From the IMG/VR virus record IMGVR_UViG_2740892233_000010: 5,244 bases of DNA, one strand, 5' to 3'. The translations under genes and the position numbers were made by a program. Below are positions 1,030 through 4,377 of this stretch, in pieces. The notes below the pieces were generated by a model. It saw nothing but the letters and a program-made list of their open reading frames with translations, was not told the DNA's origin and made no database searches. Source of the DNA: a virus. Taxonomy: Duplodnaviria; Heunggongvirae; Uroviricota; Caudoviricetes. Positions within the stretch are counted from its first letter, which is position 1. Every line of letters starts with the position of its first letter.

Positions 1030-1035
1030 ACCCAT

Positions 1036-1059
1036 AAAAAAGCCCCTCCGGAGAGGGGC
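1036..1059 (-). terminator. Intrinsic terminator (minus strand), back-to-back with the plus-strand one
   Basis: Hairpin GCCCCTC-CGGA-GAGGGGC (1042-1059); on the minus strand it is followed by U6 (A-run 1036-1041 on plus strand). Confidence 0.6.
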
Positions 1060-1140
1060 ATGTTTGCATGCACATTCTTTTTCTTGCATGGTGCCGGGTG
1101 CCTCCCGGTGAATTCAGTATCAGCACCTGAATCCGCGATT

Positions 1141-1326
1141 ATCACATATACCTGGTTGCTGATTGCCCCTCCGCACAGGGGGATTCACCATGCAGTAGTA
1201 TTTTTAATAAACAGTAAACAAAAAAATCNNNNNNNNNNTCCCATATACCTGGTTGCTGATCGCCCCTCCGCACAGGGGGATTCACCATGCAGTAGTATTT
1301 TTAATAAACAGTAAACAAAAAAATCA
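1141..1326. repeat. Near-identical tandem duplication flanking a 10-N run (1229-1238)
   Basis: About 88 nt at 1141-1228 recur at 1239-1326 with a few substitutions (atcacatatacc vs tcccatatacc; gattgcccc vs gatcgcccc). Intergenic. Confidence 0.9.
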
Positions 1327-1490
1327 AGCATTATGCAGGCTGTTTCTTTTTATCACCGGCCACAGCAATACCACAATGCCGCAGACCAGCACCCCATCCG
1401 CCAGCACCGACATGATTCTGCTGGTGAAATCCACCATCACCACCAGAAACAGCAGGAGTGCAGCCACAGCCAGGCGCAGTTTTACCGTCA
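1324..1490 (-). CDS. Putative small membrane protein (about 55 aa, two predicted hydrophobic helices), possibly translationally coupled to the TerB-like gene
   Basis: GTG at 1490-1488 overlaps the TerB-like stop (GTGA) with GGAG 8 nt upstream; stop TGA at 1326-1324. Manual translation: (M)TVKLRLAVAALLLFLVVMVDFTSRIMSVLADGVLVCGIVVLLWPVIKRNSLHNA. Codon third positions look E. coli-like (ctg, gtg). Below the length cut-off of the supplied ORF track; no homolog recalled. Confidence 0.3.
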
Positions 1491-2098
1491 CTGGTGATTC
1501 TCCAGACGAAGACCCAGAACACCGGCAATCTCTTCCAGCACCTTGCGCTCTTCCGGCTCAATTTCGCCGTCTGCCTCCGCAATGGCCACCGCCACATCCA
1601 GCACATCTTCCGCTTCACGCGTATCGTGTTTCACATCCTCGATCTCACGTAACGCCGCACGACGACCAATTTTAAAGTTCGTATCCAGCTGACCGATAAT
1701 GGTTGCGCTAATCGCATTAATTTCTGACGTAAACGCGGACAGCGCAGGCTGATTACGCAGTACCTGTTCGATCTTCGCTTTCTAGGAAGCCTCACATTCA
1801 CCATCTGCANNNNNNNNNNAATCTCGCGTAACGCGGCACGACGACCAATTTTAAAATTGGTATCCAGCTGACCGATAATAGTTGCGCTAATCGCATTAAT
1901 TTCCGAGGTAAACGCAGACAACGCAGGCTGATTACGTAAGACCTGTTCGATCTTCGCTTTCTCGGATGCCTCGCATTCACCATCTGCATAGGCCACCAGG
2001 TATGCAGCGTTAATCACCGCCTGTGCCAGATCGCGTTTCTCAAACTTTTTAATTTCCGCTGCCGCTCTGCGGGTTTTCTTTTTGAAGATTCCAAACAT
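1487..2098 (-). CDS. TerB-family (tellurite-resistance TerB-like) protein, about 143 aa once the artefactual duplication is removed
   Basis: ATG at 2098-2096 with AGGAA 7 nt upstream; stop TGA at 1489-1487. Protein: MFGIFKKKTRRAAAEIKKFEKRDLAQAVINAAYLVAYADGECEASEKAKIEQVLRNQPALSAFTSEINAISATIIGQLDTNFKIGRRAALREIEDVKHDTREAEDVLDVAVAIAEADGEIEPEERKVLEEIAGVLGLRLENHQ. The two acidic ADG/SDG-containing helical repeats match the TerB pattern as I recall it. The literal span includes a duplicated 169-nt segment plus 10 N (1641-1819), which shifts the frame. Confidence 0.85.
1641..1988. repeat. Diverged tandem duplication (169 nt x2) flanking a 10-N run (1810-1819) inside the TerB-like gene
   Basis: 1641-1809 vs 1820-1988 differ at about 12 positions. 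Translated in the TerB frame all differences are synonymous except one: the left copy has TAG (plus 1782-1784, ctagga) where the right copy encodes Glu (ctcgga). Confidence 0.9.
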
Positions 2099-2230: not shown

Positions 2231-2254
2231 AAAAAAGGCCCGCCGAAGCGAGCC
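2231..2254 (-). terminator. Intrinsic terminator downstream of the tRNA cluster (minus strand)
   Basis: Minus-strand RNA GGCUCGC-UUCG-GCGGGCC (7-bp stem with one G-U pair, UUCG tetraloop; plus 2237-2254) followed by U6 (A-run 2231-2236), 14 nt after the tRNA-Arg(UCU) 3' end. Confidence 0.65.
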
Positions 2255-2267
2255 TGGAAAATAAGTG

Positions 2268-2344
2268 TGGCGCGTTGTAGTGGAGTCGAACCACTGACCG
2301 ATTGCTTAGAAGGCAATTGCTCTGTCCGACTGAGCTAACAACGC
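2268..2344 (-). tRNA. argO: tRNA-Arg (anticodon UCU)
   Basis: Manual cloverleaf: GCGTTGT-TA-GCTC(D)-GAGC, anticodon stem ATTGC/GCAAT, loop CTTCTAA (anticodon TCT), T-arm with GGTTCGACTCC, acceptor 3' ACAACGC, discriminator G, CCA encoded. 77 nt. Symbol assigned from position in the ileZ-argN-argO trio. Confidence 0.85.
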
Positions 2345-2357
2345 ATGATGCTGATAA

Positions 2358-2434
2358 TGGACCGCCATCGGGGACTTGAACCCCGCGCAGCCAGCTTCGA
2401 AGGCTGGCGCTCTGTCCCGATGAGCTAATGGCGG
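2358..2434 (-). tRNA. argN: tRNA-Arg (anticodon UCG)
   Basis: Manual cloverleaf: acceptor CCGCCAT/ATGGCGG (C1-G72), D-stem GCTC/GAGC, anticodon stem CCAGC/GCTGG, loop CTTCGAA (anticodon TCG), T-arm CGGGG-TTCAAGT-CCCCG, discriminator T, CCA encoded. 77 nt. Isotype read from the anticodon only. Confidence 0.8.
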
Positions 2435-2443
2435 TATGTGATA

Positions 2444-2519
2444 TGGTGGCCCTTGCTGGATTTGAACCAGCGACCTGGCGATTATGAGTCGCTCGCTCTC
2501 ACCACTGAGCTAAAGGGCC
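2444..2519 (-). tRNA. ileZ: tRNA-Ile2 (anticodon CAU, lysidine type; formally could be tRNA-Met)
   Basis: GGCCCTTTAGCTCAGTGGTGAGAGCGAGCGACTCATAATCGCCAGGTCGCTGGTTCAAATCCAGCAAGGGCCACCA, 76 nt. Perfect acceptor stem GGCCCTT/AAGGGCC, anticodon loop CTCATAA. Very close to E. coli ileX as I recall it. Confidence 0.85.
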
Positions 2520-2547: not shown

Positions 2548-3261
2548 TCAATAATCAAGCCCTTGCCTGGATACATATCTGTCTGGCGGGAAGCCATAAT
2601 AGCGGTGAAATACAGAAATAAAGTAGGACCTGCTTGAATAACCGCATTTTTCTGCTATAGCCTGTCCATATCCATGCCGGGAACATAACATATTTACAGC
2701 AACACGCATCCGCTCTTCCAGCAACAAGCGACTGAACATGCCCCCTTCATTTTTCAGTTTTGTCTTTAACAAACTCTCACTCATATGCAACTGTAGAGCA
2801 ATCGCACCAAGCGTCCAGCTTGCTGATATATCTGTCTGAATTATCGCCCTGACTTTGGCACTTATGCTGGATAAACATCCACTTAAAAACAATGACATCC
2901 GTTCATCTGTTTCAAACAGAGACAGGCAGGCCATCATAAGAAACATATCCGTGGCCTCTCCGGAAAATCCCTGGCTGGTAATTAAAGCCGCAGCCAACGC
3001 AGGATTGTTGGGTTCCAGCAACAGGTAAAGCGGAATGTCAGTCAGACGAGTCCTCGTCAGCTTATGCTGACTTTCCAGATATTGACTTACGACGGATTCG
3101 CTTATATCGACAATTTTAACTTTGCCATAATGCATAAGGAAAAGCTCCCTGATGCATTTGGTGGCCAGAACGACTGAGCCTGGCTTAAGTGACAACGTAT
3201 CCTTTTCAAGAAAAATATTAATTGGGGAGCAAACCATGATAACTGAACAGACAACAGCCAT
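2548..3261 (-). CDS. AraC/XylS-family transcriptional regulator (AppY/GadX-like), prophage-borne
   Basis: 237-aa ORF from ATG 3261 to TGA 2548-2550. C-terminal double HTH (WTLGAIALQLHMSESLLKTKLKNEGGMFSRLLLEERMRVAVNMLCSRHGYGQAIAEKCGYSSRSYFISVFHRYYGFPPDRYV). N-terminus MAVVCSV resembles AppY (MDYVCSV). Gene is visibly AT-rich and uses rare codons (manual count 5 ATA, 5 AGG, 1 AGA). Exact identity (PatE/Psr-like?) not resolved. Confidence 0.88.
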   Translation of the reverse strand: MAVVCSVIMVCSPINIFLEKDTLSLKPGSVVLATKCIRELFLMHYGKVKIVDISESVVSQYLESQHKLTRTRLTDIPLYLLLEPNNPALAAALITSQGFSGEATDMFLMMACLSLFETDERMSLFLSGCLSSISAKVRAIIQTDISASWTLGAIALQLHMSESLLKTKLKNEGGMFSRLLLEERMRVAVNMLCSRHGYGQAIAEKCGYSSRSYFISVFHRYYGFPPDRYVSRQGLDY

Positions 3262-3381: not shown

Positions 3382-3409
3382 CAAATAAAAAGCCTTCAGG
3401 ACTGAAGGC
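3382..3409 (-). terminator. Intrinsic terminator overlapping the stop of the small upstream ORF (minus strand)
   Basis: Hairpin GCCTTCA-GGAC-TGAAGGC (3392-3409) followed on the minus strand by UUUUUAUUUG (plus A-run 3382-3390). The stop TGA (3398-3396) lies in the stem. Confidence 0.55.
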
Positions 3410-3593
3410 GTCTGTAACAACCGCACTGATAGTCTGCCAGACCCGCCATAACAAGCTGGGTCAGTATTAACTGGCAGCGTTCGCGTGAAAGGTAAGTATT
3501 CTGCGCAACCTCCCCGACTGTCGCCGGTTCGGTAACGCTTAATTCATTAAACACCACTCTGGCGGTTTCGGTCATATCCTGCTGTTTCAGCAT
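3396..3593 (-). CDS. Small putative winged-helix DNA-binding protein (PapI/FaeA-like), about 65 aa
   Basis: ATG at 3593 with AGGGA 7 nt upstream. MLKQQDMTETARVVFNELSVTEPATVGEVAQNTYLSRERCQLILTQLVMAGLADYQCGCYRRLQS. The layout (leader, TVGEVAQ...SRERCQLILTQLVMAGL helix pair) resembles PapI (…[30 protein letters not shown]…) as recalled. The longer ORF-track start at 3716 is a GTG inside the terminator U-tract and was not used. Confidence 0.5.
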   Translation of the reverse strand: MLKQQDMTETARVVFNELSVTEPATVGEVAQNTYLSRERCQLILTQLVMAGLADYQCGCYRRLQS

Positions 3594-3716
3594 GTCTTTT
3601 TCCCTTTTTCGGTTAACGTGACACACCAATAACTCTTGTCGAAAAAGCCAGCAAGCTGAAAGAACGGTATTAATAACCACCAGCGAATTTATTGCGCTGC
3701 TGTATATTACGGACAC

Positions 3717-3737
3717 AAAAAAACCACCTTCCGGTGG
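3717..3737 (-). terminator. Strong intrinsic terminator about 100 nt downstream of Q (tR'-like)
   Basis: Minus-strand RNA CCACC-GGAA-GGUGG (plus 3724-3737) followed directly by U7 (A-run 3717-3723). Confidence 0.7.
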
Positions 3738-3834: not shown

Positions 3835-4377
3835 TTATCGAAATGAATCGTGCATAGGTACATAAAGCATGTGTTCAGCCACGGCTAACCAACCTGCAAT
3901 ACGTTTCTCACATGTGCTGAAACACCATTCCGGGTGAGTACGATTTAAACATTCTGCCATTTTTCTCTTACTCATTCCCCGTCCTTCGTACCTTTGCCGG
4001 AGAATATTGATTAGCCCGGGATATTCCCCAAGCACCTCACTGATAACGCGATCAATAATCAACGCCTCTGTGTCTGTACAATGTGACAACCAGCTCTTCT
4101 GCTTCCCTCTGGTCATATCCCGAAAAAATGCCTCAAGTTCCGGTTTTTCCAGCCCGGATTTCTTCATGCTGCGTAAAACCTCATTAACTGCTGTTTTCGT
4201 CAGCTTTTTCGAAACCAGTAACCGGTTAAACATATTTCCGGATTTACCCCCACCGATATACGACCACCGCCCCCACATCCGTAATTTCCCCTGGATCCAG
4301 ACTGCTTCCAGCGTGTTCAGGCGTAAATGTTCGCCGCTTTTGCCTGTAATTTCCGGATATATCATATTTACGCTCAC
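3835..4377 (-). CDS. Late-gene antitermination protein Q homolog (QuuD/933W-Q type)
   Basis: 180-aa ORF just downstream of rusA, overlapping its stop (GTGA at 4374-4377; alternative ATG at 4365). N-terminal WGRW motif and C-terminal region (ALIIDRVISEVLGEYPGLINILRQRYEGRGMSKRKMAECLNRTHPEW) line up with recalled DLP12 QuuD/933W Q (ERWGAWA...AMIICGCMARL...). Followed by a short leader and strong terminator. Confidence 0.7.
   Translation of the reverse strand: MSVNMIYPEITGKSGEHLRLNTLEAVWIQGKLRMWGRWSYIGGGKSGNMFNRLLVSKKLTKTAVNEVLRSMKKSGLEKPELEAFFRDMTRGKQKSWLSHCTDTEALIIDRVISEVLGEYPGLINILRQRYEGRGMSKRKMAECLNRTHPEWCFSTCEKRIAGWLAVAEHMLYVPMHDSFR

Follow-up and report, generated by a model that had tools for sequence, protein, structure and literature searches.

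The 55-codon frame that overlaps a TerB-like gene in a lambdoid prophage sequence is tciB, a DUF3927 family gene for a probable membrane protein

Does a 55-codon open frame that starts within the stop codon of a TerB-like gene in a tailed-phage sequence encode a protein and, if so, what might that protein do? The frame lies in a stretch of 5,244 nucleotides (IMG/VR record IMGVR_UViG_2740892233_000010), the whole of which is referred to here as the window. A sequence-only reading of the window had placed an unlisted small hydrophobic ORF at 1324-1490 and proposed for it a small membrane protein, holin-like or a toxin peptide, of a kind that is often missed in annotation. The ORF is there, on the minus strand, but its start had been set one base short. 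It is unlisted only in the first-stage ORF track, from which it is missing because its 55 aa fall under the 60-aa cut-off; RefSeq lists it as WP_000216636.1. The frame and its immediate surroundings are as follows.

1324-1491, minus strand: tciB (DUF3927 family) coding sequence, with GTG at 1491-1489 and TGA at 1326-1324 (from the ORF list, HMMs, RefSeq and dN/dS)
1500-1503, minus strand: Shine-Dalgarno-like GGAG, 8 nt before the GTG of tciB (direct reading of the sequence)
1488-1809, minus strand: 3' part of a TerB-like gene (tciA homologue), contiguous with tciB, with its stop TGA at 1490-1488 (from translation)
1820-2098, minus strand: 5' part of an intact TerB-like gene from another allele, on the next tile, with ATG at 2098-2096; 91.7% identical to L001, a contiguous locus of the same kind

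The tciB ORF is 168 nt long including its TGA, and its 55-aa product in the window is MTVKLRLAVAALLLFLVVMVDFTSRIMSVLADGVLVCGIVVLLWPVIKRNSLHNA. The GTG of tciB and the TGA of the TerB-like gene share TG, so that start and stop are read together as GTGA. This overlap, the suitably spaced GGAG (1503-1500), the G/C-rich third codon positions and the two hydrophobic stretches had all been pointed out from the sequence, and all four stand: GC at codon positions 1/2/3 is 0.61/0.34/0.68 (0.50 for the window), and the protein is very hydrophobic (GRAVY 1.43). The basic C-terminus that was also remarked on is a property of the window copy (K48, R49, H53). K48 is its sole residue conserved across the family, and some homologues have acidic tails (KEQNE). 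Among relatives the Shine-Dalgarno-like motifs are weaker (CTGGAA/CTGGAT) and the stop/start overlap with TerB is retained; in many of them the start is ATG, not GTG.

The identity of the gene as tciB is close to certain. Pfam PF13064 (DUF3927) matches residues 3-51 of the 55 with 62.3 bits and E=4.3e-17, which, at a curated cut-off of 25 bits, places TciB in DUF3927; PHROG phrog_1470, named "TciB-like", matches over the full length with E=4e-30. A 100% identical stretch corresponding to window DNA 1240-1800 is annotated in RefSeq E. coli genomes, with tciB as WP_000216636.1, named "DUF3927 family protein". What characterizes the family, namely ~50-60 aa, two hydrophobic segments and a D-F-T...D-G...W-P core, is all present in the 55-aa ORF, as is overlap or abutment with an upstream TerB-family gene (here by GTGA, the contiguous TerB allele having an internal TAG). 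Homologues labelled TciB are found by tblastn in P1, P7, SJ46, 434, 2B8 and several N4-like phages. The surmise that such genes are often missed in annotation does not apply here, tciB having been included in RefSeq/PGAP, in Pfam (as DUF3927), in PHROGs (as TciB-like) and in the 2004 annotation of P1. Thus the ORF is an ordinary, previously catalogued gene and, as a gene call, nothing new. (The label "tellurite/colicin resistance/inhibition of cell division" given to tci genes derives solely from homology of TciA.)

The family belongs to phages and prophages of Enterobacterales and is widespread. A 561-nt query comprising the 3' end of TerB and tciB is matched in 2683 of 5426 complete E. coli genomes, at up to 14 places in a single genome. 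A large protein database holds 224 TciB clusters at 90% identity, and among the 120 listed the named ones are all from E. coli. Profile search of 1.84 billion representatives yields 120 TciB clusters at E<=1e-3, 28 of them at E<=1e-10, and nearly all matches are stand-alone proteins of 50-65 aa. Longer matches (P0129, P0169, P0185) were considered as natural TerB-TciB fusions and set aside as frameshift or assembly chimeras, in which, for example, the C-terminus of TerB continues into the TciB frame; domain fusion is not indicated. TciB has no match in NCBIfam or PADLOC, nothing significant in a sequence search of the PDB, and no match at E<=1 to a holin or toxin HMM of Pfam, NCBIfam or PHROGs.

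With 63 ORFs of at least 30 aa in the window, length by itself does not prove that 55 codons are a gene; what is decisive is the family HMM matches together with a comparative test. The set for substitution analysis consists of 22 divergent copies: 16 of the 18 species-representative Enterobacterales loci (the other two, L098 and L104, being decayed) plus P1, 434, Fostie, Pollock, SP-076 and the window. Its genera include Pseudescherichia, Franconibacter, Rosenbergiella, Enterobacter, Buttiauxella, Pantoea and Citrobacter. In these copies the TciB frame contains no stop, as against 3-106 stops in each of the remaining five frames, and median pS is 0.65, median pN 0.26 and median dN/dS ~0.24. 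Synonymous divergence is thus near saturation while the frame remains open. The synonymous-biased conservation that the sequence-only reading had proposed to look for is accordingly found in these copies, and the in-frame stops in related prophages that it had named as evidence to the contrary are not. A further 80 IMG/VR loci are 96-100% identical; they were excluded from the substitution analysis for that reason and used for frame-integrity counts only, the 55-aa ORF being retained in 75 of the 76 in which a TciB start could be located. All of 33 diverse members have D21 and nearly all have S28 and D32; K4, W44-P45 and K48 are common. A few copies have decayed (L098 lacks a start, L104 is truncated and L076 has lost its start), as is expected of prophage remnants. 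These copies and the shortness of the ORF are what might be adduced for the view that it is open by chance or survives as a relic without translation. Set against the HMM matches, the outcome of the 22-copy test, which refutes it, and the conservation of start position and motif across Enterobacterales and unrelated phage backbones, that explanation has a negligible probability. Judged by its pattern of substitution, tciB is a true gene on which purifying selection acts.

The upstream gene is a member of the TerB family. The reconstructed 143-aa TerB-like protein matches Pfam TerB (PF05099, E=2.6e-16), phrog_632 (E=4e-69) and the TerB structure PDB 2JXU (E=4e-8). Matches of TciA to DjlA (NF006948, E=9e-7) and DUF533 (E=3e-5) are below the curated cut-offs, and its PADLOC match to PDC-S48 is marginal (E=0.0034). 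The N-terminus of phage TerB-like proteins is conserved as a hydrophobic and polybasic segment, MFG-x-F/L-KKK, with a net charge of +3 to +7 over the first 18 aa (window 2044-2098, minus strand, and homologues). The segment is present whether or not the protein is accompanied by TciB, and its sequence is suggestive of peripheral membrane binding. Two ADG...E motifs complete an architecture that does not differ between TerB proteins with TciB and those lacking it, and a search of TciB-less TerB proteins for a compensating membrane segment found none.

The particular TerB-like allele that adjoins tciB in the window is interrupted by an in-frame TAG (1784-1782, minus strand) at codon 45, and RefSeq, on identical DNA, records an internal stop and calls the gene a "tellurite resistance TerB family protein" pseudogene. 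With this allele tciB can no longer be coupled to translation of full-length TerB and would rely on its own GGAG. The same codon-45 stop is found in 24 of the 76 near-identical IMG/VR loci, with tciB intact; counting all TerB-frame stops, an intact tciB stands beside a broken TerB frame in 25 of the 76, which implies that TciB may work without TciA.

That the window holds parts of two TerB-like alleles reflects its construction. It is a tiled scaffold with 10-N spacers at 230-239, 611-620, 856-865, 992-1001, 1229-1238 and 1810-1819. Successive tiles overlap by ~50-110 nt at 97-100% identity (~88-92% for the TerB tiles), and every tile can be placed on a single uninterrupted stretch of NZ_CP074958 (L001 5932-7279). 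The scaffold seems to join several near-identical prophage copies end to end without merging them.

Over longer evolutionary distances the two genes keep close company. The TerB-like ORF ends -8 to 0 nt from the start of tciB at 21 of 25 divergent loci, and the tciA-tciB adjacency is found in lambdoid, P1-like and N4-like (Schitoviridae; Pollock, SP-076) phages and, outside the 25 loci, in Erwinia jumbo phage ChrisDB and Pantoea phage LIET2. TerB-like genes occur in 130 phage records, Vibrio and Pseudomonas phages included, and in the four Vibrio/Pseudomonas phages inspected no TciB-like ORF follows the TerB-like gene. TciB without TerB is rare, being seen in phages 434 and 2B8, where it lies beside a 247-aa membrane protein. 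The relationship is thus asymmetric, TciB almost never being found without TerB, which fits an accessory role of TciB. (In phage 434, L003 2112-3344, the 247-aa protein is a multi-pass membrane protein encoded upstream of tciB and a 62-aa membrane protein is encoded downstream; tciB sits in the slot between Q and esterase there too.)

The genomic setting indicates when the pair is likely to be transcribed. The minus-strand order is DUF968, RusA, Q-family antiterminator, a 106-aa ORF, an AraC-family regulator, three tRNAs and a terminator-like hairpin, followed by the TerB-like gene, tciB, STnc100 sRNA and a DUF1737/SASA sialate esterase. The features that matter most for the argument are these.

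3835-4377, minus strand: Q-family antiterminator (DUF1133/Phage_antitermQ; PF06576 E=1e-110, PF06530 E=1.4e-8), which sets the late-operon context
2268-2519, minus strand: three tRNA genes, anticodons CAT, TCG and TCT (ARAGORN and Rfam), upstream of the TerB-like gene
2236-2255, minus strand: intrinsic-terminator-like hairpin and T-run, between the tRNAs and the TerB-like gene
1030-1219, minus strand: STnc100 sRNA, downstream of tciB (Rfam RF02076, full length, 147.8 bits; gathering threshold 47)
1042-1059, minus strand: terminator of STnc100, within the sRNA gene at its end

No sigma-70-like site is found on the minus strand between the hairpin (2255-2236) and the TerB start, so that tciAB are probably transcribed by Q-modified read-through from the late promoter. 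A Q gene upstream and holin/endolysin genes downstream flank the pair at no fewer than 13 of the 18 genomic loci: in lambdoid prophages tciA-tciB is a moron between Q, which tRNAs may or may not accompany, and the lysis cassette. L001 encodes its class II holin and its lysozyme separately, ~3 kb downstream of tciB, with the esterase, DUF1378 and DUF826 genes in between.

The immediate downstream neighbor is STnc100, whose match in L001 starts ~7 nt past the tciB stop. The sRNA might derive from the 3' UTR of the tciAB transcript or be expressed from a promoter of its own within tciB. It follows tciB at some loci only and is to be regarded as a neighbor, not a partner. In Stx2 phages STnc100 lies 75 nt downstream of stx2AB (PMC12370729), and the STnc100-related PasD is the immediate upstream neighbor of the esterase (bioRxiv 10.64898/2026.05.13.724894); with the same neighbors here, the TerB-TciB pair fills the stx slot. 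In the Rfam scan of the window STnc100, on the same strand, is the only match near tciB, and there are no known antisense RNA families. A partial second copy of STnc100 is present in the window at 866-991 and 1239-1316; the L001-type copy differs at its 3' end, where the terminator at 1059-1042 is missing. An ATG ORF at 1331..1185 that overlaps the tciB stop was considered as a third, tciC-like gene and discarded: it has no similarity to P1 TciC, it coincides with the sRNA, and its frame hinges on a variable poly-T tract.

TciB is probably inserted in the membrane, and to this extent the proposal of a small membrane protein holds: the gene is a genuine coding gene, and its product is very hydrophobic and predicted to be membrane-inserted. 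How it would be inserted depends on the method. Hydrophobicity analysis yields two segments, at ~5-20 and 26/33-47, both near the insertion threshold (predicted insertion energies of about -1.7 to +1 kcal/mol); a single central span is predicted to be unfavorable (~+7 kcal/mol). There is K/R at either end, and by the positive-inside rule these basic residues favor a hairpin with both termini in the cytoplasm and DFTSR at the periplasmic turn. We infer that TciB would adopt this N-in/C-in topology, placing D21-F-T-S...D32-G at or near the periplasmic side. AlphaFold2, on the other hand, models TciB as a single continuous helix (residues 3-53, pLDDT 88, pTM 0.47) lacking the hairpin turn, and the two topology models disagree. 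On the continuous helix D21, R25, S28 and D32 share one face, at 180-240 degrees. (The annotation of P7 has a predicted signal peptide for TciB.) In the hairpin model the cytoplasmic parts of TciB amount to ~6 N-terminal and 8 C-terminal residues, which are its least conserved portions; such short tails offer scant surface to a cytoplasmic TerB domain, and this counts against TciB as a partner of TciA.

P1 provides the best-known counterpart. Its TciB (YP_006541.1) is, like that of the window, a stand-alone protein of ~54 aa with the motif K4...D21-F-T-S...D32-G...W-P...K48, encoded directly downstream of, and overlapping, a TerB homologue (tciA), with tRNAs nearby. The two proteins are only ~50% identical. 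The order in P1 is tciA (the TerB homologue), tciB (54 aa) and tciC (35 aa, with one hydrophobic segment), with overlapping stops and starts, whereas the window has no tciC, STnc100 following instead. The P1 genes belong to the C1-repressed ban operon, whereas the window pair is in a Q-dependent late region. In P1vir infection tciB is transcribed (PMC8201110). A CRISPRi screen of P1 published in 2023 found tciA, tciB and tciC to be non-essential, with no fitness effect (PMC10695390), and tciABC have been lost in about half of one P1-like subgroup (PMC9603915).

Cellular TerB domains supply the other comparison. In the TerB-TerC part of terZABCDE a soluble TerB protein is combined with an integral inner-membrane partner, and the gene upstream of tciB is likewise of the TerB family. 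(A TerB-TerC interaction was reported by Turkovicova 2016, as cited in PMC11003894.) TerC is large and multi-pass, however, TciB has no Pfam match to TerC at E<=1, and other ter genes are absent, so that TciA-TciB would resemble TerB-TerC by functional analogy, not by homology. In DjlA (N-terminal region) and YebE/DUF533 an anchor in the same polypeptide keeps a TerB-like domain at the inner membrane on its cytoplasmic side; any anchor of TciA would instead be a separate 55-aa protein.

The reading that we prefer (with a probability of about 0.6) is that tciB encodes an inner-membrane accessory partner of the TerB-like TciA, in a phage module that is dispensable and serves during lytic growth. 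Translation of tciB would be coupled to that of tciA, aided in the window copy by the GGAG of its own. TciB would insert in the inner membrane, both of its basic ends facing the cytoplasm, and act at the membrane beside soluble TciA, as a counterpart, encoded in trans, of the membrane tether or partner of cellular TerB domains (TerC, or the anchors of DjlA and YebE). The module would be dispensable for plaque formation; its most likely effect would be on the physiology of envelope or ions, or on competition through exclusion of phages or colicins, and not on lysis. In favor of this reading are the recurring overlap with tciA, the polybasic N-terminus of TciA, the matches of TciA to DjlA and DUF533 and the reported TerB-TerC interaction; against it are the lack of natural TerB-TciB fusions and of a compensating membrane segment in TerB proteins without TciB, the continuous AlphaFold2 helix, and the occurrence of TciB without an intact TerB gene. 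For the partner mechanism as such the odds are roughly even.

Several of the same observations can be read in other ways. TciB might be a membrane effector in its own right with no need of TciA, conferring for example superinfection exclusion or colicin resistance by altering an inner-membrane uptake or injection route, so that its linkage to tciA would reflect co-regulation only. Phage 434, whose TciB lacks TerB and lies beside another membrane protein, is in keeping with this, as are the intact tciB genes next to TerB-frame stops, the well-spaced GGAG of the window allele, the location of the conserved TciB motif in the membrane/periplasmic part and not in the cytoplasmic tails, and the moron position, which is typical for exclusion genes. 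But the broken-TerB copies are near-identical recent alleles, which say little about long-term independence, and a TerB stop/start overlap that recurs across unrelated backbones is hard to explain by co-regulation alone. Moreover, exclusion genes normally act in lysogens, and late-operon or C1-repressed locations imply little expression there; nor does PADLOC provide a match for TciB. An independent effector is accordingly a doubtful reading. A membrane-damaging peptide akin to type I toxins or viroporins, which TciA would regulate or neutralize, would account for a small, very hydrophobic, prophage-borne protein, and the residues that share one face of the AF2 helix could line an oligomeric pore. 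It is improbable in view of the lack of a match at E<=1 to Hok, Ldr, TisB, Ibs or other toxin families, of a known antisense RNA family (STnc100 is downstream on the same strand) and of a fitness effect in the P1 CRISPRi screen. That many genomes retain an intact tciB next to a broken tciA, and that phage 434 has tciB with no TerB gene, argues weakly against strong toxicity.

Of the roles suggested from sequence inspection, that of a holin (or of a pinholin or antiholin timing lysis) fares even worse than that of a toxin, and we consider it highly improbable. Class II holins and pinholins such as S21 and 933W S are, like TciB, small proteins with two hydrophobic segments encoded in lambdoid late operons, and in lambdoid prophages tciB is transcribed with the late operon upstream of the lysis cassette. 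TciB differs from them, however, in having no holin HMM match and no dual-start motif, and in not being encoded next to an endolysin: each lambdoid locus has its own annotated holin by the endolysin, with other genes between holin and tciB. In P1, N4-like and Erwinia jumbo phages the neighbors of the pair are early, replication or tRNA genes and not lysis genes, and the P1 gene is non-essential. A bolder version of the partnership, which must be rated as a long shot, is that TciB oligomers form a cation-conducting or metal-binding membrane assembly on which TciA (which we take to be a metal-binding TerB-fold protein) docks as cytoplasmic sensor or regulator. D21, R25, S28 and D32, on one face of the modeled helix, could then form a polar core. 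If true, this two-gene 'Ter' module would retune envelope or ion homeostasis, or exclude rival phages or colicins, in lytic growth, and would be a minimal functional analogue of TerB-TerC in the late-operon slot of Shiga toxin.

The value of the short ORF is therefore as a pointer to the TerB-like/TciB pair, a widespread and conserved cargo module. Lambdoid prophages carry it where Stx phages have Shiga toxin, and it turns up again in P1-like, N4-like and jumbo phages. An understanding of how a TerB domain acts in company with a 55-residue membrane partner would help to account for tellurite resistance, colicin resistance and the inhibition of phages, Ter phenotypes that have long gone unexplained.

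Some further features of the neighborhood may be recorded. tRNA genes beside tciA-tciB recur on unrelated backbones: tRNA-Ile(CAT) lies just after tciC in P1 (L002 2716-2791), tRNA-Trp and tRNA-Cys are just upstream of the pair in ChrisDB (L107 286-754), and one tRNA is downstream of the pair in each of two Enterobacter prophages (L094 3325-3398, L095 3369-3442). The AraC-family regulator (HTH_AraC, HTH_18; 2548-3261, minus strand), which lies between Q and the tRNAs, has a lower GC content (0.45 at third positions) and a promoter-like site upstream at 3324-3297, which give it the appearance of an independent moron served by a promoter of its own. The 106-aa ORF after the Q gene (3396-3716, minus strand) has no Pfam match. 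Just upstream of it, at 3717-3737 on the minus strand, a hairpin, CCACCGGAAGGTGG, is followed by a T-run and may be the tR' terminator that is read through by Q.
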